A stretch of DNA of 64,000 nt from a bacterium (lineage in GTDB: Bacteria > Patescibacteriota > Minisyncoccia > Phycocordibacterales > UBA2100): assembly GCA_030647655.1 (NCBI GenBank), contig JAUSJH010000009.1, positions 18,196 through 82,195 on the forward strand, written 5' to 3'. A model generated the notes under the pieces. That model was given only the letters and a program-made list of their open reading frames with translations, searched no databases and was not told where the DNA came from. Below are positions 29,518 to 60,750 of the stretch, piece by piece; positions within the stretch are counted from its first letter, which is position 1, and each line of letters starts with the position of its first letter. The translations under genes and the position numbers were made by a program.

Positions 29518-29528
<11 letters not shown>

Positions 29529-32825: not shown

Positions 32826-32850
32826 AGTGCTCGGCGAATTAACTAGCGAA

Positions 32851-33165: not shown

Positions 33166-33377
33166 CGGCCATTCAGGGGACCGCGTAACCTGCTCCACGT
33201 ATCTTGATACGATCTCCTACGCTTCGCACATTACCCGACTGCACTGACCGAACGATTCCTGCAACGTCTCGACACTTGCGCGTCAATAGATCCAAGGAAC
33301 TGTCATCTGTTCGTCGGGGATTACTCCCGTCCACTGGATGACGACCGACGCACGGTTAAGCACATCGATAGAGGAAA

Positions 33378-33460
33378 TACTACAATGTAGAAAAAGACGC
33401 GTGTAACGTGGCAAACCCCCAAAATAGTGGATTTCGAGTGGATAGAACTGTGGAAAACTA
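33378..33460 (+). promoter_or_regulatory. two copies of a 15-bp palindromic operator-like site upstream of yebC
   Basis: TACTACAATGTAGAA (33378..33392) and AACTACAGTGTAGAA (33446..33460). The second overlaps a TAGAAT -10-like hexamer ~18 bp before the yebC ATG. Confidence 0.4.
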
Positions 33461-33477
33461 CAGTGTAGAATGGCCTC

Positions 33478-43028: not shown

Positions 43029-43163
43029 ATGAAACGAACGTGGCAACCGAAAAAGCGCAAACGCGCAAAGACGCACGGCTTCCGTGAGCGCTCCTCGAGC
43101 ACTTCAGGCCGCAACGTCTTGCGCCGCAGGCGCCGAAAGGGCCGCGCGCGCCTTTCAGTGTAA
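43029..43163 (+). CDS. rpmH: 50S ribosomal protein L34
   Basis: [44 protein letters not shown], 44 aa; not in the ORF track because it is <60 aa. Confidence 0.85.
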
Positions 43164-43166
43164 CGA

Positions 43167-43517
43167 ATGCCCAAAAAATACCGGCTCTCGCGTGCCGATT
43201 TTGCCCGTCTCGTGCGGAGTAAGTCCACTCGCGTGCACGGAACACTTTTTTCTCTTACAATCACACACCTACCCGATGCTGCCGGTGTAAAAGCAGTCTG
43301 TGTCGTCTCTAAAAAAGTGTCCGCGCGCGCAGTCGATCGCAACAGGGTCGAGCGCCGATGCCGCGAGAGCATCCGCCCAATACTTCCTCGCATCCAAAAA
43401 CCTGTTGCCTTAGTTTTCCACGCCAAGCGCGAAGCGAGAGTTGCCTCTTTTGCAGAGATATCACGCGATGTTGGAGAATTATTGAGAGAAGCGTACGCAC
43501 GCGGTGCACCACGTTAG
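43167..43517 (+). CDS. rnpA: ribonuclease P protein component
   Basis: 116 aa, basic, immediately downstream of rpmH; RNR-like motif region (…KKVSARAVDRNRVERRCRE…). Confidence 0.85.
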   Translation: MPKKYRLSRADFARLVRSKSTRVHGTLFSLTITHLPDAAGVKAVCVVSKKVSARAVDRNRVERRCRESIRPILPRIQKPVALVFHAKREARVASFAEISRDVGELLREAYARGAPR

Positions 43518-43559: not shown

Positions 43560-44327
43560 ATGCCTTTGCGTTCGGTGCCTCCAACGAGGTACAATCCGGA
43601 CACAATGATCTCGTACGTTTTTCACGCCGCGATATACGACCCATTGTACAATGGGCTTGTCTTTCTCGTCGACGTCATACCGACGCACGATATGGGGCTT
43701 GCGGTTATTGCATTGACAATCATTGCGCGCATCGTCATCTACCCTCTTTCGAAGCGTGCTATTGCAACACAGATGGCGATGAAAAAGATCGCGCCGGAAG
43801 TAGAGAGGGTTAAGGTGAAACACAAAGATGATCGTGAAGCCCAGAGTAAGGCAATTTTCGCACTCTATCGAGAACGAGGGGTGCACCCTTTCGCGAGTTT
43901 CGGACTCGTACTCATCCAATTCCCGGTCCTCATCGGACTTTACTGGGTATTTTATGCGGGCGGTCTTCCGGCGGTCGACGCCTCGCTCCTCTACGGGTTC
44001 GTCCATGCGCCCGCTGCGATAAACATGTCTTTTCTTGGTTTCGTCGATATGGGAGGGCGCAATATCCTCATCGCCGCGCTCGCTGGGATAACCCAGCTCA
44101 TCTACAGCAGGCTTTCTATGGGGCCGCGCGGCTCGCAAACGCCGACCGAAGCAACGCTGTCGAGTGACATGGCGAGGAGCTTTGATATGCAGGCGCGCTA
44201 TGTATTGCCGGTCATTATCGGTGTTATCGGATACACCATTCCGGCCGCAGCTCCTCTTTACTGGACGACGAGCAACATATTCATGATCGGGCAGGAATAT
44301 CTCGCTGGCCGGCGGTTTAAAGGATAG
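43560..44327 (+). CDS. yidC: membrane protein insertase YidC (short Oxa1-like form)
   Basis: Conserved YidC core (LAVIALTIIARIVIYPLSKRA…MKKIAPEVERVK…LYRERGVHPFASFGLVLIQFPVLIGLYW). Alternative start at 43605. Confidence 0.8.
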   Translation: MPLRSVPPTRYNPDTMISYVFHAAIYDPLYNGLVFLVDVIPTHDMGLAVIALTIIARIVIYPLSKRAIATQMAMKKIAPEVERVKVKHKDDREAQSKAIFALYRERGVHPFASFGLVLIQFPVLIGLYWVFYAGGLPAVDASLLYGFVHAPAAINMSFLGFVDMGGRNILIAALAGITQLIYSRLSMGPRGSQTPTEATLSSDMARSFDMQARYVLPVIIGVIGYTIPAAAPLYWTTSNIFMIGQEYLAGRRFKG

Positions 44328-44335
44328 GTCTGTGT

Positions 44336-44878
44336 TTGCTCAGCGGTGGGCTGGGGGGTATAGTGCCCCGCATGGAATCAGTCGGGGCAATCCTTAAAGA
44401 ACTTCTTTCCGTGATAGGTGTGCCGTACACAAGCATCGAACAGACCTCTGCCGCCGGACAGGAAATTTTCTCTATTCACACTGATGGAGACGCCCGCGCC
44501 CTCATCGGGGCACACGGGGACACCATCTATGCAATTGATATGCTGGTAAAGAAGATCTACGAAAAGCGCATGCCCGCTCCTCTTTCGGGCGAAGGGCCGG
44601 CCGAAGGAGACCATTCTGTGCAGGGAACGCGCGCGCCGATGTTTCTCATAGATGTAAACGATTACCGCGCAAAGCAGATAAAGGACTTACAAGCGAAAGT
44701 TCTCATGATGGCCGAACGTGCCCGCTCGCTCCAGTACGATGTCGAGCTATCCCCCATGACTTCCTACGAACGTTTGATCGTACACACCACACTTCAAGGA
44801 GCACCGAACGTGAAAACAGAATCACAAGGAGAGGGGCGCGGTCGCAGAGTGGTAATCAAATACTCTGCCAGTGTTTGA
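44336..44878 (+). CDS. Jag/KhpB-type RNA-binding protein (KH + R3H)
   Basis: A C-terminal R3H-like motif (…LSPMTSYERLIVHTTLQGAPNVKTESQGEGRGRRVVIKY) and the classic position after yidC. Confidence 0.7.
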   Translation: MLSGGLGGIVPRMESVGAILKELLSVIGVPYTSIEQTSAAGQEIFSIHTDGDARALIGAHGDTIYAIDMLVKKIYEKRMPAPLSGEGPAEGDHSVQGTRAPMFLIDVNDYRAKQIKDLQAKVLMMAERARSLQYDVELSPMTSYERLIVHTTLQGAPNVKTESQGEGRGRRVVIKYSASV

Positions 44879-44883
44879 TATTC

Positions 44884-45273
44884 CTATAATGCCGGCCTGA
44901 CGTTCTTGAACGCATTCAACTGCAAGATGTCCGGATTAATCTGGTAGAGGATGAGATAAATAGCAAGAAGAAGAAGAAGGCCAAGCGTGACTTCGCCCAG
45001 GATTCTTTTCGCCTCGGCTTTCGTGCTCCACATATCGGCAGCTCCCATATAGAGATACCCAGCGTAGGCTATTCTCAATACGGCGACTATCGCGCCGATT
45101 GCAATAGCGAATTTAAAAAGCCCGTTAACAAAATTCGAGAGATCGCCGTTCGAAGTATAAAGCTGGCCAAGCTTCGAGCCAGCCGGGGTCTCCGCAAGAG
45201 GCACGAACGTCGCGAAAAGAGCATTTTTTGCCCGAGCACGTGACCACACGATCAATCGCCTGAACATAGTCAT
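44884..45273 (-). CDS. VirB2/TrbC-like putative pilin (last gene of the T4SS-like operon)
   Basis: 129 aa with an N-terminal leader and two hydrophobic helices (LFKFAIAIGAIVAVLRIAYAGYLYM; VTLGLLLLLAIYLILYQI) separated by a short loop. Assigned from topology only. Confidence 0.4.
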   Translation of the reverse strand: MTMFRRLIVWSRARAKNALFATFVPLAETPAGSKLGQLYTSNGDLSNFVNGLFKFAIAIGAIVAVLRIAYAGYLYMGAADMWSTKAEAKRILGEVTLGLLLLLAIYLILYQINPDILQLNAFKNVRPAL

Positions 45274-46670
45274 GGGGCGAGGCGCAAGAGCCAGAGCGAC
45301 CGATCGGTCGCGTTTATGAATGAAATATAATTTCCACTACCGTCGATGATCGGATCCATGACGTCAACTGGTGCTCCCGCGTCCGGTGTATACACGAGCT
45401 CCGAACTGCCCGCACTCACATCAATACGCCAAATGGCGTCGGACGAATGCGCGGCGCCTCGGTACCATTCATCAAGGAAATCTCGCGATACGACCCCTTG
45501 AGGCGCCGCGCAATAGACAACGGCAGTCGTGCCTAGAGACCAGACACACTTGTCTGCAATTGTCCGAAGCGGAACCTCGACCGCGCTCGTGTTCGCGCTC
45601 AACCGCGTGAAGAGAGTGAGCGCCCCGTCCTCCGAACGTCCCCACACGAGGGCGCTTGAGGAGGCCCGAGGGAGGATTGTCAGGCCGGGGATAATCCGCA
45701 GAAGCGGGACGAGCGTGCCGTCGCCTTTGAGCTCGTAGGAGTATCCAGACACACTGTCGGCAGCTGCCTGCGTGAGAATGATACGTCCATCGGAAAGCCA
45801 AAGCGGGCGCCAATGCACGATTGGGGAAGAGAAAACCTGTTTCGGCTTTTCGCCGTTCCATTGCGCTCGAAAACCCGCTGTCCCTGCCTCGTTGCGTGTG
45901 AGGTAAAATAACTCACCGGATTTTGGATTGACAACGAGACTCAGGATATTCTTCGCAAGCATGACGCCAGAAAGCGGCGAAACAGCATCCCGCGCGCCAC
46001 CACCGGTCGAAGATGCCACCTGTATAGATCCTGCGAATGTGGCAATGTCCCCACTCCCGTCAATCGAACGCTCGTAGACGTGCCCACTTCCCATCACAAG
46101 CGCTTCGTATATTTTTGGCATGAGCGTGTTCGTCATGCGGATTACTGTCCCGGTTTCTGGGTCGGCCTCGAATACATAGCCGTTAGAGCGCTCAACATAG
46201 CGCAAAACCGGGCGCGCTGAATTTTTCGAGAACGCGATACCCGCGACGGGGGCACTAACCACATGCCACAATTGAGGCGGACGGTTTTTTGGTGGAGGTG
46301 CAGTCGACGTACGCGCCTGCACAGAAGTATCAGTACCAAGCAGTTTGCCGAAATCTCCACCAAATGATCCGCTGGTCGACAGCGCAGGCACGATTGCAGA
46401 TTCTCCGGTGAGAACATTCCAGACTCTAGACAAAAATCCAACGTTTGTCGGAGCAGGAGATGATTCGGGGGCAGGCGACAGTAACTGTGATGCATTTCCC
46501 CCCGCGTCCCCGAGAGGGGCCTCTACTCCGTATCCTCGCGCCTCGTCTTGCGACAGGCTCGTTTGTGATTGTGTGCGTAGGAAAAAGTACCATCCAGAAA
46601 GTCCTCCAAGCATGAGGACAATAAGCGCCGCAAGAATATACTCGATGATCGTTCGCGTATTCATATTCAC
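45270..46670 (-). CDS. hypothetical membrane-anchored extracytoplasmic protein (T4SS-like operon)
   Basis: 466 aa, N-terminal TM IIEYILAALIVLMLGGLSGWYFFL, then a large soluble domain. 4-nt overlaps with both neighbouring genes. Confidence 0.5.
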   Translation of the reverse strand: MNMNTRTIIEYILAALIVLMLGGLSGWYFFLRTQSQTSLSQDEARGYGVEAPLGDAGGNASQLLSPAPESSPAPTNVGFLSRVWNVLTGESAIVPALSTSGSFGGDFGKLLGTDTSVQARTSTAPPPKNRPPQLWHVVSAPVAGIAFSKNSARPVLRYVERSNGYVFEADPETGTVIRMTNTLMPKIYEALVMGSGHVYERSIDGSGDIATFAGSIQVASSTGGGARDAVSPLSGVMLAKNILSLVVNPKSGELFYLTRNEAGTAGFRAQWNGEKPKQVFSSPIVHWRPLWLSDGRIILTQAAADSVSGYSYELKGDGTLVPLLRIIPGLTILPRASSSALVWGRSEDGALTLFTRLSANTSAVEVPLRTIADKCVWSLGTTAVVYCAAPQGVVSRDFLDEWYRGAAHSSDAIWRIDVSAGSSELVYTPDAGAPVDVMDPIIDGSGNYISFINATDRSLWLLRLAP

Positions 46671-47731
46671 TGTGTAGTGTTACGGAACTGGTCTTGGAGT
46701 GGCTCACTTGACGATAGCATGATGTTCCACACACGCTTCACGTCCGTGTAGAAATTGCTCGTGTGCGTTAGCTCGAGCTCGATAAGCGCGATTCCGTTCG
46801 AGTTCGTGGCATTTATGGTGATTTCGCTCGGAGCACTCGCGCTTCGTGGGACCAAGGCACCGTTGACCCGCCATCCATACATAAGAGTGGGGTCGTTGAC
46901 GCTCCGCGCTTGCGAGAAATACGGAACGGCCGCGAATGTCATCTCGGACTCTGGGATGAAGGTAGAAGCGCCGAGTGAGCGGTGGTAGAGAATTCCGTAG
47001 AGCGGATGGTCCTCGTAGAGGGCGAGCATTGGCTCGACCGATTGCGCGGCGACACGCGCTTCTCCCGAGAGCACTCCGTCTTGGGTGCGGACCTCGACCG
47101 AGAAGTTGTCGGCTCCGTACAGATGAAGAAAAGGAATATGAACGCTCGATTTCCCGCGCCCCGAAATACTGCCGAGTACTTCGCCATTTCTGCGCCACGT
47201 ATAGATGAGGTCGGAGGCTGCGATCAGCGGCCCGCTCGGGCGCTTAAAGCGCGGGATGACTGAAAGCTCTAGGGTCGTTCCGGCCGAGACGAGCGCTCTT
47301 CCGCGATAGAAAGGCGGAATATAGGAATCCGAGTCAATAAGTAGGTCAAGCTCGGTTGGAATAATAATCGCCCGTCCGGAAGCCGAGACCCAGTCCGGAG
47401 CGATTACGCCGACTTCGATGTCAGTCTCTACTCCTAGAGCCCCTGCAGTCACTTGCGCTGAGTCAACGCCGACTCCCTGCGCGATTGTTTTGCCGTTCGC
47501 GCGCCAGAGTATCGTGCTTGTCCCAAGGTCGAGCACGGAGCTCTTCACGGCGAGTTCCACGGTTTCTCCAGGGCTCGGGTGAAGTGGAGAGAGGCTGATA
47601 GAAAGTGCGCGCTCTATTCCGAGAAGGCCGAGCTGTGCGTGGGCACGCAAAGGAAGAAGGATTGTGCATAAAAATATTACACTGCCTGTAATTATCAGAT
47701 ACCTTACTGTGACGCCCCGCAACGTACTCAT
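46667..47731 (-). CDS. hypothetical secreted protein (T4SS-like operon)
   Basis: 354 aa, signal peptide LIITGSVIFLCTILLPLRAHAQ; 4-nt overlaps with neighbours. Confidence 0.5.
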   Translation of the reverse strand: MSTLRGVTVRYLIITGSVIFLCTILLPLRAHAQLGLLGIERALSISLSPLHPSPGETVELAVKSSVLDLGTSTILWRANGKTIAQGVGVDSAQVTAGALGVETDIEVGVIAPDWVSASGRAIIIPTELDLLIDSDSYIPPFYRGRALVSAGTTLELSVIPRFKRPSGPLIAASDLIYTWRRNGEVLGSISGRGKSSVHIPFLHLYGADNFSVEVRTQDGVLSGEARVAAQSVEPMLALYEDHPLYGILYHRSLGASTFIPESEMTFAAVPYFSQARSVNDPTLMYGWRVNGALVPRSASAPSEITINATNSNGIALIELELTHTSNFYTDVKRVWNIMLSSSEPLQDQFRNTTQ

Positions 47732-49665
47732 TGTTTCGATGCTGTGGACGCTTCCTGCGCCGCGTTGAAATTTATCGGCGACGATTGGATCTGCCCCGCC
47801 TGTGTACTCGCACTGGCCGCAACTTTAGACACGGCCTCAGGCGATGTGCCGCCCGCGTTAGCGAGGTCCTGTTTCGCCTTTTTGATCGCGAGTATCTGGG
47901 ATGGATCCGACGTGATTATTTGATCTTCGGTGTACGAAGCGATGACCTTGATTGCGACGTGTTTCAGACCGGCGAAGAAAATTCCCTCTCCCACGTCGGA
48001 TTCAAGAAGCAAATATTTTTCTTCGTCGGAAAGCTTGAAGGTTTGTTGCACAAGGTCGACGGAGGTCGGAGATTGCCGTAGAAGCATCTGAATGGAAGAG
48101 TTGGTAATCATCGGAATGCCGTAGGGAGAATTCAAGAAGTCGGAGACGTCCTGCGTAATCGTCGAGATGCCGAGGAAGTATTTGCGTCCGCGCTTTGCGA
48201 TAGAGAAGAGAAACGATGCGGTGTCTTCGCTACGCATCATCCACCACGCTTCATCAATGACCAAGAGGCGCTTGCGGAGTTCTTTTCTGACTGCGTTCCA
48301 GATATGGTGCGTGATAATGTACATCGCGACCGGCTTCAGGTCATCTTCCATGTCGCGCACCGAGAATACGATGAGCTTTTTGTTCATGTCTACATTGGTC
48401 GGCCTGTTCATGAATCCCGCCCACGTTCCCTTGGTGTATTTCGAGAGGCGCGCGACAAGCGATTCCGACCCCTCCATGCCCGAAAGCACGAGCTCGAAGT
48501 CGGAGAGAAGTGGTGGTTCAACCAGAGCAAAGTTGGCATCTGCTGTGATGTCTTTCAAGGCGTAAGTCTCGGTGATTGCCCTGTCGATGACGGCGTCCTC
48601 CTCCGGGGTGAGCCCGCCAAGCATGATGCGAAAGAGCCCCACCAGAGTGATGATGTTGTTGCGCAACACGTCAGACGGGTTCTCGTCCTCTCTCGGGATG
48701 GCAAGGTCGAACGGATTTATATGGTGCTCCGATGAGAGCGAGATATTGAAATAGCGGCCGCCCACCGTCTCTGCTAGGTATTCATACTCGCGCTCCGGGT
48801 CGATGACGATAACCTCGGTGTCGAACATGAGTGAGCGCAGGATCTCCAATTTTGTCGTGTATGATTTTCCGGCGCCGGATTTGGCGAAGGTCACGGAATT
48901 GTAGTTCTCCAAACTAAAGCGGTCGAATAGAATGAGTGAGGAATTATGTCTGTTGATGCCATAGAGGATTCCGCGATCCGAAGTAAGATCGAAGGAAATA
49001 AATGGGAAGATAGAGGAAAGCGGCGCGGAATTCAGTTTGGTGTGCACATTAATCTCGTCGGTCGCAATCGGAAGCACGGAGCGGAAGCCCTGCTCCTGCT
49101 GGAAGAGCGCGGGCCGGATGTAGACCAAGCGCGATTCGAGGATCGAGCGCACTTCGGTCTCCACTTTGTCTATTTCTTCTCGCGTATTGCCGTAAATTGT
49201 TAGGTAGAGTCCTACCTCAAAAATGCGCTCCTGCGCTTGCTGGAGAGAATCACGCAGTTGCTCGAGGTCGGAATAGGCGGTGTCGAGCATCGGGTCGCGC
49301 ACCATACCTTTTTGTTCACGTGTCGATATCTGACTTTGTACCTCGGCAACTTTCTTCTGGAATTTGCGGAGCATATCGTTGGTATCCATGGGGTGAACGA
49401 ATATAGAGATATCGATGACCTTGTCCATGTTGATGATAGGTGCAAACCACCCCGTCGTGAGGAAGCGCGGATACGAGATAACGAAGAACGTACGCGCTAT
49501 CTTCTCCCCCAAATCGAGCTCGCGCGAGTTGACGCGGAGAGCATGCGGCGCGATGACGTCTTGGAGGTCGAGCACGCCCGACTTGTATATCTCTTCTGGC
49601 AGTACGGGGAGAACGTTCGGCCCTTCTTCCGCTTTCTTTTTTTTAAACAGGTCCAAGAGTGCCAT
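47728..49665 (-). CDS. VirB4/TrbE/PrgJ-family conjugation-type ATPase, C-terminal 645 aa (ATPase domain)
   Basis: Walker A TFAKSGAGKSYTTK and Walker B LLVIDEAWWMM. The upstream region RTFFVISYPRFLTTGWFAPIINMD matches the VirB4 N-domain core. Confidence 0.8.
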   Translation of the reverse strand: MALLDLFKKKKAEEGPNVLPVLPEEIYKSGVLDLQDVIAPHALRVNSRELDLGEKIARTFFVISYPRFLTTGWFAPIINMDKVIDISIFVHPMDTNDMLRKFQKKVAEVQSQISTREQKGMVRDPMLDTAYSDLEQLRDSLQQAQERIFEVGLYLTIYGNTREEIDKVETEVRSILESRLVYIRPALFQQEQGFRSVLPIATDEINVHTKLNSAPLSSIFPFISFDLTSDRGILYGINRHNSSLILFDRFSLENYNSVTFAKSGAGKSYTTKLEILRSLMFDTEVIVIDPEREYEYLAETVGGRYFNISLSSEHHINPFDLAIPREDENPSDVLRNNIITLVGLFRIMLGGLTPEEDAVIDRAITETYALKDITADANFALVEPPLLSDFELVLSGMEGSESLVARLSKYTKGTWAGFMNRPTNVDMNKKLIVFSVRDMEDDLKPVAMYIITHHIWNAVRKELRKRLLVIDEAWWMMRSEDTASFLFSIAKRGRKYFLGISTITQDVSDFLNSPYGIPMITNSSIQMLLRQSPTSVDLVQQTFKLSDEEKYLLLESDVGEGIFFAGLKHVAIKVIASYTEDQIITSDPSQILAIKKAKQDLANAGGTSPEAVSKVAASASTQAGQIQSSPINFNAAQEASTASKQ

Positions 49666-49667
49666 AA

Positions 49668-50330
49668 TTATTTTTGCAGTGGCATCGGCTTTCCTTCTTC
49701 ACCGGGGTTGAACATCTTATAGAGGAGTTCTATCGCTTCTTCGGTGCCGAGCTGCACGGTGCGCACGCCGGTGCGTACCAATCCCTGCTGTACTATGGCG
49801 ACGCGCTGCTCCAACTGTGTAACCTGCTCTTCGAATGTTCTGTTCGCGTCTTCAGTACTGGCATTTTTCTTTCCGAAGGGCAACATCGAAAGCATCCCTT
49901 TTTTATTGATGGCAATCGAGGGAGAATATGGCACGGCGACAAAGAAATTCTTCGTCATGATGTTCGCGGCCTCGGTGAAGCTTTTCACGAACTCGATGTA
50001 TTCGCGGATCTGGATACGCATGAGGTCGTCGAGCTGTTCTTTGTATGCGGCCTCAAGAGTCGCGACATAGGGGCGGATGTCGAGCATGCGCGATTGCACG
50101 AATATTTGCACGGAGAAGTCGAGTGAGTTGAGGAAATTTTGGAACTGCATGATGAATGCGGTTTGTTCATCCTCGCTCTTGAGCGCGAAGTTGAGTGAAG
50201 AAGCGAGAAGGATCGCACGCAGGCCACCGTCTTTGAGTACAACAACGCCGTCGCGCACTTCAGAAACTGGCAAAAACTCCTGTGTCGAGCGAGCGGAAGC
50301 GCGGGGGCCTTTGTCTGCTGTTGTAGGCAT
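49668..50330 (-). CDS. VirB4 N-terminal segment encoded as a separate ORF (frame-shifted relative to the ATPase ORF)
   Basis: FLPVSEVRDGVVVLKDGGLRAILLASSLNFALKSEDEQTAFIMQF resembles the extreme N-terminus of Gram-positive VirB4 homologues (from memory). The ORF ends PLQK-TAA 2 nt before the ATPase ATG. Start taken at MPTTADK (50330). Confidence 0.55.
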   Translation of the reverse strand: MPTTADKGPRASARSTQEFLPVSEVRDGVVVLKDGGLRAILLASSLNFALKSEDEQTAFIMQFQNFLNSLDFSVQIFVQSRMLDIRPYVATLEAAYKEQLDDLMRIQIREYIEFVKSFTEAANIMTKNFFVAVPYSPSIAINKKGMLSMLPFGKKNASTEDANRTFEEQVTQLEQRVAIVQQGLVRTGVRTVQLGTEEAIELLYKMFNPGEEGKPMPLQK

Positions 50331-50334
50331 AGGT

Positions 50335-50853
50335 CTAATTATCTTTGGGGAGGCGAGCCATCGCCTGTTGGGGGGTGCGGATAGGAACGACAATATCCTC
50401 CGATGTCCGCACAATGTGCTTTTCTTCATCGTTTGCCACTCCGGCCGCAATACGTTCTTTGATGTCCAAGCTCCACGCAAGTTCATGGAGCTTGCTTCCC
50501 GAGAGCTTGGGGACGTAGATTTCCGAACTACCTAGCGCGAGCTTGCCAATCACAGGCTGGGCAGTCTTCTTTTTGCGTGTATTGTTCCAGAGATACAGCT
50601 TGCTTCGCACAAGGAAAAAGAAGCCATTCTCAAGGCCTACTATGAACGGCCGGCCGTTGAACTGGAAAAAAGCAAGGCCAGCGGCAAGCCCTCCGACCAC
50701 TGCTATCAAAGGTCCGGCAAAGTAGATAGGTAATATACGCCAGAAAATGTAGCAGGCTCCGAAGCCACCCATAACGTAGATAAATTGCTTGAAGGTCAGA
50801 GGGCCAAAAATCTTGTCCTCGACCTCGATGAATTGCGGGACTTGGAATTGCAT
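50335..50853 (-). CDS. PrgI-family (VirB3-like) membrane protein
   Basis: MQFQVPQFIEVEDKIFGPLTFKQFIYVMGGFGACYIFWRILP… matches the N-terminal pattern of PrgI/Orf17-type proteins, which precede VirB4 in Gram-positive conjugation loci. Confidence 0.55.
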   Translation of the reverse strand: MQFQVPQFIEVEDKIFGPLTFKQFIYVMGGFGACYIFWRILPIYFAGPLIAVVGGLAAGLAFFQFNGRPFIVGLENGFFFLVRSKLYLWNNTRKKKTAQPVIGKLALGSSEIYVPKLSGSKLHELAWSLDIKERIAAGVANDEEKHIVRTSEDIVVPIRTPQQAMARLPKDN

Positions 50854-50958
50854 GGCTCCATTATATCAGTGTACGGGGCTCTCCCCCGCCACTGTTCACC
50901 CCGTGAGAGAACAAATCGTGTGTCCAAAGACTAGCTTGACCGCATTCTCTCATGGGGT

Positions 50959-51531
50959 TCACGCTGGCGGCTCGCGATAGGGGTCGTCGTGTACAGACTT
51001 GCGTGCGACACTCGTTTCGCCTGCTTTGTACGACTCGGAGACAGGCGCGCGCACGATTCTCCCCTCCGGCGGCGGCGCAGGCGGGGTCGCTGGCTGGACT
51101 ACGGGGGTTGCGAGCACCGGGCGCATAGGAGCATCACTCAAGACTTGCGTACGCATGCCCTCGACCCCGCTTACCTCTGCCGCTTTTGCATCCGGATGCT
51201 CAAGCTCCCGCTCCAGCTCTTCGCGTATAGGCTGGAATACGATGCGCGAAATATCCGCAGCGAGCGAGATTGCCATTTCCTTCGAAATATCAAGGTCGGT
51301 TTTCAGACTATCGGCAAGTTCTTCCGGCATCTGGAAGCCCAAGAGCGTCATCATGACTTCGTTCTCGAGAAGTTGCCACTGGTCGAGATGAAGTTTATTG
51401 GTATCGGCCAGTGCCCGTAACTGCTTTTGTATGTCCGCTGATGTAATAGCGTTTTGTAGCACTTTTGGCAACTCCTTAAAGCGTTCGCGCAACTTTGTGT
51501 TCAACTCGTCCTGCGGGGTATCTACATCCAT
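50959..51531 (-). CDS. hypothetical protein (T4SS-like operon)
   Basis: 190-aa ORF, acidic/helical N-terminal half, Pro/Ala-rich C-terminal half. Confidence 0.45.
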   Translation of the reverse strand: MDVDTPQDELNTKLRERFKELPKVLQNAITSADIQKQLRALADTNKLHLDQWQLLENEVMMTLLGFQMPEELADSLKTDLDISKEMAISLAADISRIVFQPIREELERELEHPDAKAAEVSGVEGMRTQVLSDAPMRPVLATPVVQPATPPAPPPEGRIVRAPVSESYKAGETSVARKSVHDDPYREPPA

Positions 51532-51534
51532 ATA

Positions 51535-53859
51535 TTAAGGCGTGGCCGGCGGCGGAGTTGCGGCCGGAGAATCGGCTTGTATGTCTGCCATAACATCGCG
51601 CAAACTTTTGGTCCTTATTTTATTTTTGTAGAGCTTCTTTGTTTCCTGGCCGATCACCTCGTTTGCTCCGGTGGCGCGGCCGAGTGCTCGCTCAAATATG
51701 TTGCCCGATTTTTGCCCGATCTTCTCGGCAATGTTCTCACCGCTTTTTCCCATAGCGGCAACAATTGTCTCTGCGGCTCCTTCGGCCAGCCTTTTCGTTT
51801 CTTCCTCGTAATCTTTCAACTGCCTCTCCGCCTCCTTCCAAGGCCTCTCCGCCTCCGCTACTCCATTTTCAATGATTTTTACATTCGCCTGTGCTTCTTT
51901 TATGCGATTATCTTCGTCACGCATTTGCGACTTCTGTTGGTCAGGAGTTAGGCTGGTATTGGCTGCGATCCTTATTTTCTCTTGCGAGACGCGATCTTTG
52001 ACAATATCAGCGTTTTGTTGAGCCGCGGCTAGTTTCTGCGGAAGCTGTTGCATCTGTTTTATGTTTTCCGCGTTCGTTTTTTCAGATCGCCGCGCTGCTT
52101 CTAGCTGTTGAAGTCCGAGTTCACGCTTCTGCTGTTCAATTCGTCGAGCCTTTTCACGTGCGTTCTCGTTATCATCTGCCGATGGAGCAACTTTTGCTGC
52201 TAGTTTTTCAGCAGCCTCCGTACGAGCTTTAACTTGGCTATCGTAACCTTTTGTATCTCTTGTCGATTCTCCCGCCACAAATCCGCTAATACCAGCCGCT
52301 TTTGTCGCCGCTTTCATGGCTGTTGTATCCATGAGATTCATCTTGCTGTCCGCAATTTTCCCAATTCCGAAACGAGTTGCTTGTTTGAGTTTAAGAGCAG
52401 CCGATTCTTCCAGTTTGCGCGCTTCTGCCCCATATTTTGCAGCCATCGGGCTCATTTCGTCGAAAGCCCTCGCTTCCTGAGCGCGTTTCAACGAGGCAAG
52501 CTTGTTTATCTCTTTAGCCTGTCCTATGCGGGTGTTCCGGTACTTGCTTGCCACGAATCCAGCGGTCTGACGCAAGAGCGGTGCGGCGATGAAGCGTGCG
52601 CCCATGGTGAACGGCAATGCCGTTGCCATTTGTGAAATATTGAATCCGCCGATTTTGCCGGCCCAGATGCTCGAGAACTTGAACGAAGCAAAAAGTAGCC
52701 CGAGCACCATTAGATATATGAAAAGAGATTCAAGATTGACCGCCTTTGTAGGCTCGCTCAGGAGTCCGCCGAGCGTTCCGCCATGCGGCCGCATGGCTTT
52801 TGCGATAGAGACGGTGACCCAGAGGAAGAGCATCAAAAGCGGAGCGAAGACCGCGCTCCGTAGGAGCGAACTCCACCACGTTTTCCACCCGTAGCTACTC
52901 GTCTCCCACGCAGGGATGAGGTACGAAGCGAAGGCTGCGGACGCAGTGATCATCAGGAAGATTATTAGTACCGCGCGTGAGATGAGTAGGAAAGAGCCGT
53001 ACAAAAGGACAAGTGCGGCGGCTAGGAAAAGCGTCGATGAGAAAATGCCGTGCAAGAATGCCATCCACCCGTTGTTCAGTGCATCAGCGCCAGCGTCGAG
53101 TGTCTTGAACGTCTGGGCCCCGCTTGTGACGCCCATGAGACTGATGAACGAACCGGCTACGCCCGCGTTCGTGAATTTGTACGAAACATCCTCCGCTCCC
53201 AATGTGGCTCCTATGGCAGCCACCTGACTGTTCTGCGTGTTCCCCCCGATCCCCGTGGCCTCGTACAACTGCTTGGCGGTGAAGTTTGAAGCATCGATTA
53301 TCATCTTCGTGAAGAGAAGACTGAAGTTGATGAGTACGGCAATAATAAGCACGCGCGCTATCATCTTTTTTTGACCGAATTCCTTTAGTCCGATGATGAT
53401 GGATATCGCGATGAAGGTGAATATACCGATGATGAGGATGTTGGCAATATCGCGGAATACGGTCCACGCAATTTCAACGCCCTGCTTGACGCCGCCGCTA
53501 AAGAAAGTACCGAACTCGACGACGGTGTAGTTCATGATCCAGTTAAAAAGAAGTCCCGATACTTCAAGAAGCCATGCGGTAAGTTGGATTAATAGAGTTG
53601 CGATGACGACTCCGATCAGTCTACCGGTGCATATTACAGGGCTGTACCAGTAATTCGTGAATCCGCTACAGGAGATCTGGTTTGCGGCGCTTGCCGCAGG
53701 AGTCGTTTGTGCGGATGCTACAGTGGCGTGCATGGTAAAGGCGGTTTCTGTAAATGACATCGACAACGGAACGCACACAAGCAATATCGCAAGAATTATT
53801 ATTACTTGCTTGAATCGTGTGCGATGTTTTGTCAGCGTGTACATATTTATTTCCTCCAC
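51535..53859 (-). CDS. VirB6/TrbL-like polytopic membrane protein with a long Lys/Glu/Ala-rich coiled-coil C-terminal tail
   Basis: 774 aa; the N-terminal ~450 aa has ≥6 TM helices and a periplasmic signal region. The C-terminal 300 aa is a charged coiled coil. Assigned from architecture and operon context. Confidence 0.55.
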   Translation of the reverse strand: MEEINMYTLTKHRTRFKQVIIILAILLVCVPLSMSFTETAFTMHATVASAQTTPAASAANQISCSGFTNYWYSPVICTGRLIGVVIATLLIQLTAWLLEVSGLLFNWIMNYTVVEFGTFFSGGVKQGVEIAWTVFRDIANILIIGIFTFIAISIIIGLKEFGQKKMIARVLIIAVLINFSLLFTKMIIDASNFTAKQLYEATGIGGNTQNSQVAAIGATLGAEDVSYKFTNAGVAGSFISLMGVTSGAQTFKTLDAGADALNNGWMAFLHGIFSSTLFLAAALVLLYGSFLLISRAVLIIFLMITASAAFASYLIPAWETSSYGWKTWWSSLLRSAVFAPLLMLFLWVTVSIAKAMRPHGGTLGGLLSEPTKAVNLESLFIYLMVLGLLFASFKFSSIWAGKIGGFNISQMATALPFTMGARFIAAPLLRQTAGFVASKYRNTRIGQAKEINKLASLKRAQEARAFDEMSPMAAKYGAEARKLEESAALKLKQATRFGIGKIADSKMNLMDTTAMKAATKAAGISGFVAGESTRDTKGYDSQVKARTEAAEKLAAKVAPSADDNENAREKARRIEQQKRELGLQQLEAARRSEKTNAENIKQMQQLPQKLAAAQQNADIVKDRVSQEKIRIAANTSLTPDQQKSQMRDEDNRIKEAQANVKIIENGVAEAERPWKEAERQLKDYEEETKRLAEGAAETIVAAMGKSGENIAEKIGQKSGNIFERALGRATGANEVIGQETKKLYKNKIRTKSLRDVMADIQADSPAATPPPATP

Positions 53860-55427
53860 TTGTCTTTCCAGCCCTGTATGACAGCTGGATTATTGACGTT
53901 GCACCAGCCGACAGCAGGGTTCGCGTTGTCGGCCCACGCTTGTACAGTGTTGGTAACGAGCGTACTCATCACATCTCTCACGTTGGTGAGTTGCTGGAGG
54001 ACGCCGGTGGGGCCGTCCACGTCCGGTCTTTTATGAATCAGGTCCCGTGCAATCAGTGCGTCGAGTTGTTCGATAGCTCTGCGCTGCGCGTCCGGCGAGG
54101 TCGTATTTGTGACGCCTTGGATGAGCTCTTCAATGAGCCGCAGAGCGTTCTCGGACTTCTCTATGTTGGTAATCATGGTCGATGCGAGCTCCGCGATCTG
54201 CGCGTCTATGACATTCTGCGCGAATTTCTCGGTCGAGGTCGCGATTTCGTATGTCGTGCCACTTGCTACACACGTATTATCACGAGTGACTGGTGCATTT
54301 TCACACACTCTCGGGACGACAAGGTTCCAGCACTGCTCCTCCGCGCTCCGCAACTGCGCAATCGTTTGTGTCAGGACCGCGCCAATGGCATTGACCGCTT
54401 GTAAGTACGTGGCCTCCACCTGCCGTGCTGCCGCGAGGAGATTAAGTGCGGCGTTGACGACGGCATTGCGGAGTCCTTGCGAGGATTGCTGTGTGATTTG
54501 GTCGAGATACGAAGGCTGGCCGCCGATACCTTGCGTGATGCCCGCAAGACCTCCGTCGTTGGTGATGATTTGCGTCGTCATTCCTGCATAAAGGGCGCCT
54601 ATCATCTGTCCGATGTCATTGGCACTCTCAAGTTGGTACACGGGGCTGTCGAGGATTCTCTGGAACGATTCTTGCACCGTGGCCGCCGGAGTGACCACAT
54701 TGCCCTCACTATCGGTAACGGGATAGTAACCACGGCCCCAAGTCCACTGGTCTTGCTGGTACTGCTCAGCGCGGGCGATGCTGGCGCCAGCGAGTTCTTC
54801 TGACAGGTAGAACGCGGAGAGTGGATCGCACGGAGCGGAACCTGCAGCGGCGACAGCATCCCATATATTTACACCCGTCGGAAGCAGTCCGCTGTGTACG
54901 AGCAAAAGATTCCCCTGATATGGGCAGGTAAGTATTTTCTGTGGGGCACGTGTCCTTACGTCGTAGTTGCGCACGAGCGTGCGTGTTATTGGTCCTTGAA
55001 GGGATGTGTTGAGACTTTTAAGCTTTTCTCCCTGAAGAAATCCCAGCATTGTCGAGTCTATTGCCCCCGTGAGTATTTCTTGTCCCTCATTAACGACATA
55101 GAGCGGTTTCCCGTCGCGACCAGTTGTGACCCCTACAATCGCTCTCTTGCCGAAAGCGGAGGTTGCCGCCTCGCGTTGACGGTCAATCACTTCGCGCAAG
55201 ATGCATTCTTTGTAGACAAGGATTCCGGTATTAAGTTCGACAGTGGCATCAGCGACGGGCACGTAGACCCCGCCGGTCGCTGCCATAGAACCGATTGACA
55301 TCGCGTAGGCGCCGTTCAAATTGCAGTCAAAAATCCCCTTCCGCGCGTATTGGTATGGGGGGTCTGTTTGCGCCAGAGCCGGTAGGGGTAAAAGTGCGAA
55401 CACGAGAATGAAGAGGAGTTTTCTCAT
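53847..55427 (-). CDS. hypothetical secreted protein (T4SS-like operon)
   Basis: 526 aa, clear signal peptide MRKLLFILVFALLPLPALAQ. Confidence 0.5.
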   Translation of the reverse strand: MRKLLFILVFALLPLPALAQTDPPYQYARKGIFDCNLNGAYAMSIGSMAATGGVYVPVADATVELNTGILVYKECILREVIDRQREAATSAFGKRAIVGVTTGRDGKPLYVVNEGQEILTGAIDSTMLGFLQGEKLKSLNTSLQGPITRTLVRNYDVRTRAPQKILTCPYQGNLLLVHSGLLPTGVNIWDAVAAAGSAPCDPLSAFYLSEELAGASIARAEQYQQDQWTWGRGYYPVTDSEGNVVTPAATVQESFQRILDSPVYQLESANDIGQMIGALYAGMTTQIITNDGGLAGITQGIGGQPSYLDQITQQSSQGLRNAVVNAALNLLAAARQVEATYLQAVNAIGAVLTQTIAQLRSAEEQCWNLVVPRVCENAPVTRDNTCVASGTTYEIATSTEKFAQNVIDAQIAELASTMITNIEKSENALRLIEELIQGVTNTTSPDAQRRAIEQLDALIARDLIHKRPDVDGPTGVLQQLTNVRDVMSTLVTNTVQAWADNANPAVGWCNVNNPAVIQGWKDKWRK

Positions 55428-56266
55428 GACTTTTTCTGCTTCTGGTACGTCACAAGCGCTTGGAAGGATGCGAGCACATCGGATTCAGCCTGATTGTATG
55501 AGCGCAGAAGCGCAACGGAGGCGAATGGATCGTTTGCATTGTCTGCAAGCATCGTCAATACCGTACCGAATTCCTGCAATGCGTTCAGAATGGCGATGTG
55601 GCGCGATGCGGCGTCAGTCGGCACGATTATTTTTGCTCCAGCATCTGCCGATGCGAAATAGTTTTTCGCGGCACCCTTTAATTTTTCGAGATACACAGGG
55701 TCTTTTGTATCTGTGTAGCGCGCGAAAGTCTCGAATTCAAGCTCGGTATTCTTGAGGAGAGGAGCAAGTGCATCTTGCATGCTCTCGCGATAGACGAGCA
55801 TGCGCGCATATGAGGTATCAAGGTCCGTCTTGACGTCAGTAAGCGTGTACGTCTTATGCGATATGGGCACCTGCAGGTTCACCGCCATTCTTTCCGCAAT
55901 TTTCTGACCAACCTCGGGGGTATAGAGCCCCTGTTCTTGTAGCGCTGCGTATGTGTTCACGAGACCACCCAGTATCGCCGAGCCAATTGGAGAGCTCCCA
56001 TCATCCGATGACGTGGCGAGTTGCGCCCCAGCTTCGTAAGTATCAACTTTGTGTGCAGATACAGGGTCCGTGGAAGCAACGAACGATGTTGCTGCGCGCT
56101 TGGCTTCTATCGCGTTGTACGCTTGCCACCCTAAAGCAGTGACGAAAAGCAGAGCCGAAACTGCGGCGGTAACGAAAATTGCTGAAAACCCATACTCGTT
56201 GGTATACGCCAAAAAACTCACGCTGCTGTTTGCGCGCTCTTTTTCCACACGATAAGTATAGCGCAA
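55424..56266 (-). CDS. hypothetical membrane-anchored protein (T4SS-like operon)
   Basis: 280 aa, single N-terminal TM FSAIFVTAAVSALLFVTALGW. Confidence 0.45.
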   Translation of the reverse strand: MRYTYRVEKERANSSVSFLAYTNEYGFSAIFVTAAVSALLFVTALGWQAYNAIEAKRAATSFVASTDPVSAHKVDTYEAGAQLATSSDDGSSPIGSAILGGLVNTYAALQEQGLYTPEVGQKIAERMAVNLQVPISHKTYTLTDVKTDLDTSYARMLVYRESMQDALAPLLKNTELEFETFARYTDTKDPVYLEKLKGAAKNYFASADAGAKIIVPTDAASRHIAILNALQEFGTVLTMLADNANDPFASVALLRSYNQAESDVLASFQALVTYQKQKKS

Positions 56267-56328
56267 GAAAGAGGGCTCTTAGCTCCCCGGATAGCATTTT
56301 TAGGGGAAAATTCCTATGTCGAGCAGGA

Positions 56329-57240
56329 TTAGAGACCCATCGGAGTAAACGTGAAGACACTACCCGCGTCACTCGAAGAAAAGGCGACGCCGTAGGCGCC
56401 GAAAAGCGAAGCGAGCGCGATGTAGTTCTTGGTGAAAGTATCGGCCGAAGCGTTGTATTTTTCTATCGCATGAATAAAATCGCTATCGCGCTCCGCTTTG
56501 GGAACAAGCGCAAGATTCGTCCCGATCTCGATGTAACTTTGTGTAAGCGCCTTGTGCGTTCCTGCCACTTTAAGCGGCACGTTGTCCATGCCGGCGAGAT
56601 TATTGCCCAGATTTTGGAAAGAATGGGCGAGATTTACCACCGCCTCGGCTTTGCCCTGATCGGTGCGGTCCTCGACCTGCCCCTTGAGTATTTGCATCAT
56701 ATTTGAGTGCTGTTGTTCGAACGATTCGATGCTTGAGCCAATGTCGTTGCCGTAGCTGTAGAGCTCCTGCTGAAGATCGGTCCGCGCAGAAGTCGATGTT
56801 GTAGTACTCACAAGACCGCTCGGTATGAATGCGTATGCGCTCGGGATGTCCCCGCTTGCCGGAGCCGTGTTCAGCCTCGCTCCTTCGCGGACGAGCATCG
56901 CAACGAAATCATCAAAATTAAATGAATCACTGGCTAAAACATTCTGCGAAGCAGAATGTTCGCCCGATGCTCCGCTTCGCGGAGCGTTTAGGGGCGGTGT
57001 GTATGTGTAGGGCGGACCGCTCTTAACCCGTTGCATGATGTCCTCAGCATACGGAGATGCGCCAGAAGTTGGTACGTAGGAGGCGGGGTCAAGATACGCG
57101 TTTCCAGCTCCCCCCCATGCGGTTATTTGTGTTGCGGGGAGCGCAACTTTTTGTCTCTCAACAATGAATGCGCCGACGACGAGCAATATTCCTGCTCCGC
57201 AGAGCGCGGAAACATACGGATGCGTGCGGGTCCAGTCCAT
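56329..57240 (-). CDS. hypothetical membrane-anchored protein (T4SS-like operon)
   Basis: 303 aa, N-terminal TM VSALCGAGILLVVGAFIV. It has the same overall architecture as 55424..56266. Confidence 0.45.
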   Translation of the reverse strand: MDWTRTHPYVSALCGAGILLVVGAFIVERQKVALPATQITAWGGAGNAYLDPASYVPTSGASPYAEDIMQRVKSGPPYTYTPPLNAPRSGASGEHSASQNVLASDSFNFDDFVAMLVREGARLNTAPASGDIPSAYAFIPSGLVSTTTSTSARTDLQQELYSYGNDIGSSIESFEQQHSNMMQILKGQVEDRTDQGKAEAVVNLAHSFQNLGNNLAGMDNVPLKVAGTHKALTQSYIEIGTNLALVPKAERDSDFIHAIEKYNASADTFTKNYIALASLFGAYGVAFSSSDAGSVFTFTPMGL

Positions 57241-57241
57241 A

Positions 57242-57574
57242 TTACTGACTACTCCCCATCATAGTTATGTAGGTCCCAGGCCAGACGATGACCGGCTGAA
57301 TCGAGACAATGCAATAGTAGGGAGCACCCGCAAGTCCCAAGAGCCATTGGCCCCCATGGGTTGGTGGACCGAATTGATAGGTCTTTGTAGACGGTGTCCA
57401 GATATAGGGTCCGCCGCGCGGGGGCCCGAGATTTGCGTAAATCGCTTGGTTGTAGCAGGGGATGACCATGCTTGCCTGTCCTCCAAAAGGAAATGCGAGC
57501 GCCCATGCTGGGAAGAGAAGCGCAAGAATACCTGAGACGGCACACACGACGCGCATACATGTATTATACGGCAT
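57242..57574 (-). CDS. small secreted Cys-containing protein (first gene of the T4SS-like operon)
   Basis: 110 aa, signal peptide MRVVCAVSGILALLFPAWALA. Its stop abuts the next gene's start. Confidence 0.4.
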   Translation of the reverse strand: MPYNTCMRVVCAVSGILALLFPAWALAFPFGGQASMVIPCYNQAIYANLGPPRGGPYIWTPSTKTYQFGPPTHGGQWLLGLAGAPYYCIVSIQPVIVWPGTYITMMGSSQ

Positions 57575-57598
57575 ACGGCAAGCAGAAACCTGCGACGT

Positions 57599-58393
57599 TC
57601 ACAGTAACTCTTGTGCAATCTTGCCCCACTTTTCAAGGGGCACATCTTCAGCGCGTGCTTTTTCACCCATGCCGGAGAGGGCGAGTGCTGCACGTGCCTC
57701 CTCTTTTCCGAATACAGCGGCAAGATTATTCGCAAGAAACTTTCGTTTCGATGCGAACCCCGCCCGTACCACCTTGAAAAACACCTTTTCGCTTACATTT
57801 AAGAAAAATACTTTTGATATATTGTCGACGAGCAGTATTGCGGAATCGACCGAGGGTGGCGGAGAAAAGTTGCCCCGCGACACTTTTGCGACGACCTTTG
57901 GCGTGCCATACGCTTTGACAGAAAGTGAAAGAATACTTTCTTTGCCGTTTCGAGCGATGATGCGCTCGGCGACCTCTTTTTGCACGAGAAGTGCCATCGC
58001 GCGCGGCTGCACCTTGGCTTCGAGAAACTGCCTGATTATTTCTCCTGTAATGTAGTACGGAATGTTCGCGGCCACGACATATTTTTTCAAACCCAACGTT
58101 TCCGCCGTGACGTCACGAATGTCTTCGAGAACGACTTTCAGCTTACCCGCGCGTATTTTTTCGGAAAATGTCCTTTGTAGTTGCTCGACGAGCTTCTCGT
58201 CTTTCTCGATCGCGACAACGTTCGATCCCGTCGCCAGGAGCTCCTTGGTGAGCGCGCCCTTTCCCGGGCCTATCTCAAGAATCTTTTCATCTGGCTGCAC
58301 ACAGACGGCTTCCGAGAGTTTTCGCGCGGCCCAGGGCCCCGTCAAAAAGTGCTGCCCGAGCCGCACCCCTTTCTTTTTTCTAGCGGATTTCAT
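57599..58393 (-). CDS. rsmA: 16S rRNA (adenine1518/1519-N6)-dimethyltransferase RsmA/KsgA
   Basis: LGQHFL, ILEIGPGKGALT (SAM motif I), NIPYYIT. Confidence 0.85.
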   Translation of the reverse strand: MKSARKKKGVRLGQHFLTGPWAARKLSEAVCVQPDEKILEIGPGKGALTKELLATGSNVVAIEKDEKLVEQLQRTFSEKIRAGKLKVVLEDIRDVTAETLGLKKYVVAANIPYYITGEIIRQFLEAKVQPRAMALLVQKEVAERIIARNGKESILSLSVKAYGTPKVVAKVSRGNFSPPPSVDSAILLVDNISKVFFLNVSEKVFFKVVRAGFASKRKFLANNLAAVFGKEEARAALALSGMGEKARAEDVPLEKWGKIAQELL

Positions 58394-60344: not shown

Positions 60345-60750
60345 TCGGAGAGTTGAAACGAGAAGATTCTGGTGGGAACATGCGCGGACTATAGCACGTG
60401 ACGGCGCCCCTGTTTAGAGAATGGCTTGAAATAAGACTATAAATGGCTGCTAACACGTTATCCACCGTTGTTATCGAATATGAATTGACTGTGAACCCCT
60501 GTAAAGGTAGAGTGGACCGAGCGGCACCAACTGACCTTCCGGCTCATCTTAAAAGAGTGAGATTTAGAGCCAAATTTCCAGACATCCGCACGTGCCGTGG
60601 CTCAAATTAGGCTTATTATCTAGCGCAGCGAGGGAAGACAAGAGGCTTGCTTCTGTATGTACCTTGCCAGCGATGATGAAAAGCCGATGAAATCGGCTTA
60701 TATCAGAGAAACAAAGTGATCCTCGCGCGGATTTTGCAATTCCGCGAGCG

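Follow-up and report, generated by a model that had tools for sequence, protein, structure and literature searches.

Type IV secretion systems (T4SSs) of the Patescibacteria, or candidate phyla radiation (CPR), have been described in two studies. In the first (Quinonero-Coronel et al. 2025, Microb Genom; PMC12102498), the T4SS ATPase VirB4 is reported from 2417 of 3035 Patescibacteria genomes as a monophyletic clade nested in MPF-FATA, with TrsD as the most abundant accompanying component and PrgI/VirB3, VirB6 and VirB2-like pilins encoded near virB4; VirB8 and VirB1 seldom turn up, only 103 genomes have relaxases, type IV coupling proteins (T4CPs) are rarely adjacent and, in Paceibacteria and Microgenomatia, the T4SS lies close to dnaA, dnaN, rnpA, rpmH and ksgA, the hypothesis advanced there being a non-conjugative system that possibly imports DNA or macromolecules. 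In the second (Wang et al. 2023, Cell; PMC10633639), transposon sequencing of Southlakia epibionticum showed its T4SS cluster (SEML1_0006-0019), pilins included, to be essential for growth as an epibiont; the authors recognised neither a coupling protein nor a relaxase. Reviews describe the role of the T4SS as "completely unknown" and propose effector delivery or the import of nutrients and nucleic acids (PMC11665869, PMC12857230), and a 2026 preprint shows tubular structures at the parasite-host interface that are tentatively assigned as T4SS pili. Here we describe a 12-gene T4SS locus (g1-g12; positions 44884-57574, minus strand) in a 64,000-nucleotide stretch of contig JAUSJH010000009.1 (assembly GCA_030647655.1), hereafter the window, from a Kaiserbacteria-like member of Paceibacteria (Patescibacteria/CPR). 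The locus is very probably the Patescibacteria-clade T4SS, that is, a vertically inherited, chromosomal, relaxase-free core machine of MPF-FATA descent.

Compared with the Patescibacteria-clade T4SS, the locus presents no difference at the level of the system. It shares a VirB4 of MPF-FATA ancestry, an adjacent separate TrsD gene, PrgI/VirB3 and a VirB2-like pilin, as well as a putative VirB6 near virB4, suggested by its membrane topology and through orthologues; moreover, it has no relaxase or coupling protein nearby and occupies the same dnaA/dnaN/rnpA/rpmH/ksgA neighbourhood. Two details set it apart from what is published there: a single pilin gene stands in place of the arrays of 2-11 pilin genes common in Saccharimonadia and Microgenomatia, and the operon lacks an internal VirB1-like hydrolase, no such domain being found in g1-g12 with Pfam or NCBIfam. 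System, gene set and location were already published in 2023-2025 and, as a typical instance of that system, the locus counts as already known.

The compact minus-strand gene run that an earlier note on this DNA had read between 44884 and 57574 agrees with the list of open reading frames (ORFs), which holds 12 genes rather than the 13 stated there; the component list of that note itself totals 12. Window ORFs were compared with an independent gene call on the Logan assembly of the same organism, in which g1-g7 measure 104, 303, 274, 526, 769, 190 and 172 aa. The 4-nt stop/start overlaps that had been described throughout are present at four of the 11 junctions (g3/g4, g9/g10, g10/g11 and g11/g12), the other seven consisting of one 13-nt overlap, gaps of 1-4 nt and two wider gaps of 62 and 105 nt. 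Five nucleotides (44879-44883), and not 6 bp, separate the stop of the g12 pilin gene from the convergent jag stop, and at the opposite end only 24 nt lie between the ksgA stop and the g1 start. The clustering of g1-g12 is far beyond chance, and they make up a real, well-delimited locus. Scans of 44000-61000 with promoter and terminator consensus sequences returned 14 and 23 matches, against 11.5 and 18.8 in shuffled sequence; these numbers are not above expectation, so that the boundaries of the transcription units are not callable.

Among the recognisable components, g9 (47728..49665, minus strand) encodes a 645-aa VirB4 ATPase of MPF-FATA/CD1110 type. It scores 363.8 bits against NF045971 (VirB4-like conjugal transfer ATPase, CD1110 family; cut-off 325), aligning to positions 180-733 of 752, and matches PF19044 (5e-24), the solved VirB4 C-terminal domain 4ag5 (E=1e-40) and R388 TrwK (1e-7), with both nucleotide-binding motifs intact (Walker A AKSGAGKS; Walker B LLVIDE at position 467). 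By its sequence, g9 is a bona fide VirB4. The preceding gene, g8 (49668..50330, minus strand), encodes a TrsD-like, separate VirB4 N-terminal domain of 220 aa when read from the ATG at 50330; its longest ORF extends to 50486 and would overlap g7 by 152 nt, and the independent gene call places its start 4 nt past the PrgI gene. Matches of g8 to TrsD NF041427 (2.9e-5), VirB4_plasma (1.1e-7), CD1110 positions 11-116 and TIGR00929 positions 2-179 are all below the curated cut-offs of NCBIfam. With g8 on positions 11-116 of CD1110 and g9 on 180-733, the pair tiles one VirB4, as expected from the split ATPase that had been proposed. A separate ORF of 209-232 aa ends just before virB4 in all 76 relatives compared; with every relative in the comparison showing the split between VirB4 and TrsD, an assembly artefact is not its cause. 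A 272-aa ORF upstream of virB4, considered as the mark of a frameshifted pseudogene, was rejected as such, the separate ORF being kept in 76 of 76 relatives.

Three further genes complete the recognisable set. The 172-aa g7 product (50335..50853, minus strand) is a PrgI/VirB3-like membrane protein, whose match to PF12666 (E=9.8e-9, 36.1 bits) exceeds the cut-off of 27 and bears out the original PrgI call; PrgI was detected in 76 of the 80 relative loci described below. The polytopic membrane protein encoded by g5 (51535..53859, minus strand; 774 aa, or 769 from the ATG at 53844) has about seven predicted transmembrane (TM) helices followed by a charged, coiled-coil-like C-terminal tail of ~330 aa. 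While the topology proposed for a VirB6-like protein is thus present, the family assignment comes from relatives: searches of Pfam, NCBIfam and PDB gave nothing for the window copy, its profile meets only coiled-coil proteins among PDB sequences, through the tail, and PF04610 (TrbL/VirB6) is matched by 7 of 44 orthologues (best E=7.7e-5). Supported indirectly in this manner, g5 is best described as a putative extended VirB6. Finally, g12 (44884..45273, minus strand) encodes a VirB2-like T4SS pilin of 129 aa, laid out as a leader, FVPL, two hydrophobic helices (45-68 and 91-109) joined by a YM..D...K..AK loop, and a QINP motif. The window protein falls short of the PF18895 cut-off (21.3 bits against 26.6; 3e-4) and matches TrbC at 0.01; among 30 orthologues, PF18895 is matched by 29 (best 7e-11) and TrbC/VirB2 by five, in agreement with the two-helix pilin first proposed. 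The leader of the window pilin (MTMFRRLIVWSRARAKNALFA then TFVPL) is ~10 residues shorter than that of relatives such as locus L001, and its hydrophobic core is broken by Arg and Lys; at this N-terminus, the other reading frames give no sign of a frameshift.

The ancestry of these components lies in the monoderm, CD1110-type conjugation machinery of MPF-FATA, which upholds the Gram-positive-type assignment made earlier. Conjugative systems of that class used for comparison were the CD1110-type system of C. difficile CTn2, PrgH/I/J/K/L of pCF10 and TrsC/D/E of pGO1. Common to these and to the window locus are a VirB4 that passes the CD1110 equivalog cut-off, the PrgI family, a polytopic, putatively VirB6/PrgH-like protein, a TrsD-like separate N-terminal fragment as in pGO1, and no outer-membrane core (VirB7/9/10). 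The window locus differs in that relaxase, T4CP, VirB1-like hydrolase (PrgK/TcpG/CD419) and VirB8-like NTF2 protein (PrgL/TcpC/TraM) are not recognised, in its VirB2-like pilin, and in being chromosomal, vertically inherited and non-mobile. To our knowledge, Gram-positive T4SSs lack a VirB2-like pilin.

Vertical inheritance is apparent from the relatives. A VirB4 search returned more than 8000 cluster representatives, of which the best 120 are 88-98% identical and 626-692 aa long and, where named, belong to Candidatus Kaiserbacteria, Paceibacterota, Pacebacteria or Patescibacteria; the closest plasmid-borne VirB4s (CD1110-family, Clostridium, Bacillus and Streptomyces) are 29-37% identical. 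Every window protein was then located by tblastn in 80 relative loci, one genome per species, labelled as Kaiser-, Nomura-, Taylor-, Campbell-, Wolfe- and Adlerbacteria or Paceibacterota and, in ~20 cases, generically as "uncultured Candidatus Saccharibacteria". In this comparison, which the earlier note had suggested, the order uvrD-ksgA-[g1..g12]-jag-yidC-rnpA-dnaA-dnaN recurs essentially everywhere, the core g5-g12 being detectable in nearly all 80 loci and g1-g4 only in a Kaiserbacteria-like subset; in distant genomes, the positional analogues before VirB6 are a bitopic protein of ~300 aa and a secreted protein of 500-670 aa. Across the 59 more distant loci, median identity is 76.7% for VirB4, 60.7% for TrsD and 47.4% for PrgI, compared to 54.4% for DnaA, 38.0% for DnaN, 39.9% for YidC and 48.2% for KsgA, and in 57 of these loci VirB4 exceeds DnaA in conservation, which points to a constraint unusually strong for a secretion ATPase. 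VirB4 divergence tracks that of the neighbouring housekeeping genes and is slower than that of DnaA. Since order and flanks are the same in 80 relatives and VirB4 is more conserved than DnaA, the locus is a vertically inherited core machine, and not an integrative and conjugative element (ICE); the operon is fixed between uvrD-ksgA and jag-yidC-rnpA-rpmH/dnaA-dnaN.

In the window, uvrD/pcrA (58380-60344) and ksgA/rsmA (57599-58402), both on the minus strand and identified with Pfam, precede the operon. On its other side lie jag (R3H; 44336-44878), convergent with the g12 pilin gene, yidC (43560-44327) and rnpA (43167-43517), also assigned with Pfam, and rpmH (43029-43163), read from the sequence, all on the plus strand; these are followed by dnaA (41395-42744) and dnaN (40083-41180), on the minus strand, recognised from sequence and conserved tblastn matches, with three DnaA-box-like sites in the spacer between them. 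The description of the operon as abutting oriC is a loose one: its flank is the origin region (jag, yidC, rnpA, rpmH, dnaA, dnaN), but the rpmH-rnpA-yidC-jag block (~1.9 kb) separates it from the region upstream of dnaA. Among the scanned ORFs of the 64-kb window, no relaxase, T4CP or integrase family was found with Pfam and NCBIfam, in agreement with the earlier note, nor any FtsK/TraG-like family besides VirB4 itself; no DNA-processing module is thus present within 64 kb. Within the operon, the same libraries recognised no VirB7/9/10 or CedA-like protein, and no DNA-binding or nuclease component and no candidate effector or toxin domain was recognised.

The remaining seven genes of the locus encode accessory proteins, two of which carry recognisable or probable folds. 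The product of g10 (46667..47731, minus strand; 354 aa) is a membrane-anchored protein whose AlphaFold2 model (pLDDT 89.9, pTM 0.76) consists of an N-terminal TM helix and three tandem immunoglobulin (Ig)-like β-sandwich domains, each with a W..NG motif. Foldseek retrieved tandem-Ig arrays with this model (Hoc, NCAM, the S-layer protein SbsB, SiiE and GhpA; E ~1e-8) and, among its matches, no NTF2/VirB8/TcpC fold. A TcpC/VirB8-like identity, considered for g10 on account of its TM helix and repeated ~105-aa domains, was accordingly rejected: the model being an Ig array without NTF2 fold, the gene that immediately follows virB4, and does so in 78 of 80 loci, is not a cryptic VirB8. The membrane-anchored g11 protein (45270..46670, minus strand; 466 aa; present in 68 loci) combines a TM helix and a low-complexity linker of ~110 aa with a domain that is probably a TolB-like β-propeller, as suggested by 12 TolB entries matched by its orthologue profile (E=0.007-0.05, weak but consistent) and by matches to PD40 in 3 of 36 orthologues and to DPPIV_N in one.

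Among the other accessory proteins, the 526-aa g4 product (53847..55427, minus strand) is a secreted, all-alpha protein with seven conserved Cys (six invariant, one nearly so) and long predicted helices at 307-374 and 401-440; some homologues contain an extra FN3 domain, and g4 is a Cys-rich, all-alpha structural orphan, without structural match. Both g4 and g10 are 100% identical to proteins at NCBI (Q7S50_02930 and Q7S50_02900, respectively). Two bitopic membrane proteins are encoded by g2 (56329..57240, minus strand; 303 aa, TM 9-27, extracytoplasmic helical C-terminal domain; 17 orthologues) and g3 (55424..56266, minus strand; at most 280 aa, 274 in the independent call; TM 27-45). Their C-terminal ~140 aa align with each other (hhalign 96.6%, E=6e-10), and by this profile alignment g2 and g3 are distant paralogues; neither profile matched VirB8 among PDB sequences. 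The 190-aa product of g6 (50959..51531, minus strand) is presumably cytoplasmic because it has no TM helix; it comprises a helical N-terminal region of ~110 aa, a Pro/Ala-rich linker and a conserved C-terminal DPYRE, and in all 53 orthologues the gene stands in the order VirB6-g6-PrgI. For g1, g2, g3 and g6 there is no match to a known family or structure in Pfam, NCBIfam or PDB sequences, and the profiles of g1, g2, g3, g4 and g6 met nothing meaningful among PDB sequences, the matches being, for example, to coiled coils of artificial design or to part of Dicer.

The smallest of these genes, g1 (57242..57574, minus strand), encodes a secreted protein of 110 aa (104 aa in the independent call) with a signal peptide followed by a FPFGGQ motif, two invariant Cys and a C-terminal MMGSSQ; its 22 orthologues are 35-82% identical. 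Located between ksgA and g2, with a 1-nt gap to the latter, it lies on the operon strand only in the window and in its closest relative, L001; in the 20 other species that carry it, the gene has the opposite orientation, running towards ksgA and away from g2 (loci compared for orientation: L002-L024, L039, L045, L049 and L066). A single-gene inversion of g1 took place in the window lineage, where no inverted repeats bracket the gene and, because nearly all relatives that carry it have it on the opposite strand, g1 is probably a recent recruit to the operon. By the same token, the T4SS promoter of most relatives should lie in the divergent spacer between g1 and g2.

By reference to T4SS biology, TrsD and VirB4, docked by PrgI/VirB3 on the extended VirB6, would form a cytoplasmic-membrane translocon with its ATPase motor, which would assemble a VirB2-type pilus with the g12 pilin as filament. 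The triple-Ig g10, the propeller-like g11, the helical g4 and the bitopic g2 and g3 would make an extracytoplasmic layer across the wall, replacing VirB8, VirB1 and adhesins and, in our preferred reading, the machine would contact the host cell and move macromolecules between host and epibiont. Host contact and macromolecule exchange, including direction and substrate, are speculative, and so is the view that conjugation is less likely than either the export of effectors or the import of macromolecules, such as nucleic acid, from the host. Across Paceibacteria, the seven unannotated genes are inherited together with virB4. A more specific proposal, which we regard as possible but rather doubtful, is that they encode undescribed structural parts of the T4SS: the membrane-anchored g10 and g11 would span the wall or contact the host where VirB8, VirB1 and adhesins are missing, g4 might be a VirB5-like pilus-tip factor, g2 and g3 would be further parts and g6 could stand in for the coupling protein. 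Taken with an ATPase under stronger constraint than DnaA, this would point to a housekeeping organelle for macromolecule import rather than an accessory secretion system.

Several points weigh against this interpretation of the locus. Its function is entirely inferred, sequence being silent on transport direction and cargo; the structural roles of g1-g4, g6, g10 and g11 are deduced solely from their topology, as predicted, and from their conserved position beside one another; and the VirB6 and pilin of the window do not reach Pfam cut-offs, their support coming from orthologues. The absence of relaxase and T4CP covers 64 kb of a contig of ~156 kb, which makes a distant copy possible, and VirD4-like matches elsewhere in most Patescibacteria genomes are reported in PMC12102498. 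Finally, essentiality is demonstrated in a saccharibacterium only (PMC10633639), and not in Paceibacteria.

It is very improbable that the locus is instead an ordinary Firmicutes-type ICE, or its remnant, whose relaxase, coupling protein and integrase have decayed or lie outside the window. In its favour, VirB4, PrgI and TrsD have homologues in the conjugation modules of MPF-FATA, the window covers just a portion of the contig, and PMC12102498 reports relaxases in 103 of 3035 genomes as well as many distant VirD4-like matches; however, an ICE is hard to reconcile with an identical position amid the same housekeeping genes in 80 species-level genomes, with a VirB4 more conserved than DnaA, with closest plasmid homologues at most 37% identical, with an operon GC content of 0.51-0.55 that resembles its flanks (0.47-0.57 across the window), and with the failure to find integrase, relaxase or T4CP in 64 kb. 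The conserved synteny in particular largely refutes an ordinary ICE, and the chromosomal, non-mobilising Gram-positive-type T4SS of the earlier note is supported by housekeeping flanks kept in 80 relatives, by the failure to find relaxase, T4CP or integrase in the window, by a VirB4 divergence in step with the neighbouring housekeeping genes and by the CD1110 type of VirB4.

The choice between import of nucleic acid or other macromolecules and protein export or contact is more balanced, and we give the two roughly equal weight and conjugation very little. A dedicated DNA-uptake (competence) machine like the ComB T4SS of Helicobacter or the archaeal Ced system, supplying host or environmental DNA as a source of nucleotides, is a plausible minority view. 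Helicobacter pylori ComB has a diderm core of VirB7-10, and archaeal Ced has CedA/A1/A2. Like these, the window locus has a VirB4-family ATPase without relaxase and a proposed inward transport, and neither relaxase nor T4CP was found in the window; neither the VirB7-10 nor the CedA/A1/A2 set is present, and the weak local match of VirB4 to CedB (E=1.8e-9) amounts to 36.8 bits against a cut-off of 700 for NF041017 and covers 71 residues in the P-loop region only. The lack of nucleotide synthesis in Patescibacteria (PMC11665869, PMC12857230) and the import hypothesis favoured in PMC11665869 and PMC12102498 argue for uptake, whereas natural transformation of Southlakia proceeds instead via ComEC and type IV pili, its T4SS being essential independently of comEC (PMC12857230), and none of the operon products was recognised as a nuclease or DNA-binding component. 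A system that injects effector proteins into the host bacterium or, as a pure pilus or adhesion organelle, anchors to it is one we hold at a similar, tentative level. Brucella VirB and Bordetella Ptl are effector T4SSs that export proteins without a T4CP. This reading gains from the VirB2-like pilin conserved in the cluster, from the secreted or surface proteins encoded with it (g1, g4, the Ig-like g10 and the propeller-like g11), from the protein-secreting T4SSs without T4CP acknowledged in PMC12857230 and PMC12102498, and from the effector delivery proposed for Saccharibacteria in PMC11665869 and PMC10633639. On the other hand, none of the operon products was recognised as carrying a toxin or candidate effector domain; g1 and g4 need no T4SS to leave the cytoplasm because they carry Sec-type signal peptides; and a VirB4 conserved above DnaA would be unusual for a host-range-specific effector system.

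Outside the operon, the other scanned ORFs of the window are housekeeping genes, typical CPR genes or without family match, and include a Mur ligase, GH10, histidine kinases, GDH, PolA, PilB, RuvABC, PBP1, a ComM-like Mg-chelatase, a toxin-antitoxin toxin and a MzaB-like ATPase; an Rfam scan of the window found three tRNAs only, none near the operon. A LysM-LysM-Peptidase_M23 protein is encoded at 60751-61788 (plus strand), divergent from uvrD and 3 kb upstream of the operon. LysM/M23 domains are noted in some VirB1-like candidates in PMC12102498; a link of this protein to the T4SS is doubtful because a homologue was detected in 3 of the 80 relative loci only. The PilB/GspE-type T2SSE ATPase with MshEN at 27675-29528 (plus strand; E=2e-113) is a type IV pilus extension motor, apart from the T4SS. 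A 519-aa GHKL ATPase (HATPase_c_3; 31266-32825, minus strand) lies among small ORFs without family; it weakly resembles MzaB, the MZA anti-phage ATPase (98.6 bits, cut-off 850), and a BbrUII-type restriction enzyme. The surrounding region, 29518-33816, is possibly a small defence island, bordered by pilB and ruvB at one end and by housekeeping genes at the other. Two genes at 5629-6224 (plus strand), the second of them for a YafQ-like toxin (PF15738, 1.3e-4), are probably a type II toxin-antitoxin pair, and the independent gene call places a UPF0150/HicB-like gene nearby. Four proteins of 389-747 aa, two of them longer than 650 aa (968-3040, 3421-5664, 22700-24049 and 34016-35185), begin with hydrophobic segments and match nothing in Pfam or NCBIfam, as is typical of unannotated CPR surface proteins. 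The segment 18001-22000, with a GC content of 0.47-0.48 compared to ~0.53 elsewhere, holds three PAS/HisKA/HATPase histidine kinases and, by sequence, a response-regulator-like gene.

In summary, the interpretation given in the earlier note was right, with DNA uptake or cell-cell interaction as candidate functions, and is already in the literature, and the locus adds no new kind of system. What is new is modest: the triple-Ig fold of g10, the likely fold of g11, g4 as a structural orphan and the paralogy of g2 and g3, together with the inversion of g1 in the window lineage and a VirB4 more conserved than DnaA; the Paceibacteria-specific g10, g11, g4, g2/g3, g6 and g1 have no individual description in the consulted parts of PMC12102498 and PMC10633639. 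For Paceibacteria, the window provides an example that is complete and clean, the limits of each gene being defined, and its conserved set of accessory proteins is now usable for interaction modelling, the interpretation of cryo-electron tomography and, when co-cultures of Paceibacteria can be handled, genetics. A relaxase-free T4SS cluster beside the replication origin is carried by almost all ultrasmall CPR/Patescibacteria, a radiation that holds a large share of bacterial diversity. Few envelope machines are conserved in this radiation; the T4SS is among them and, in Saccharibacteria, it is essential.

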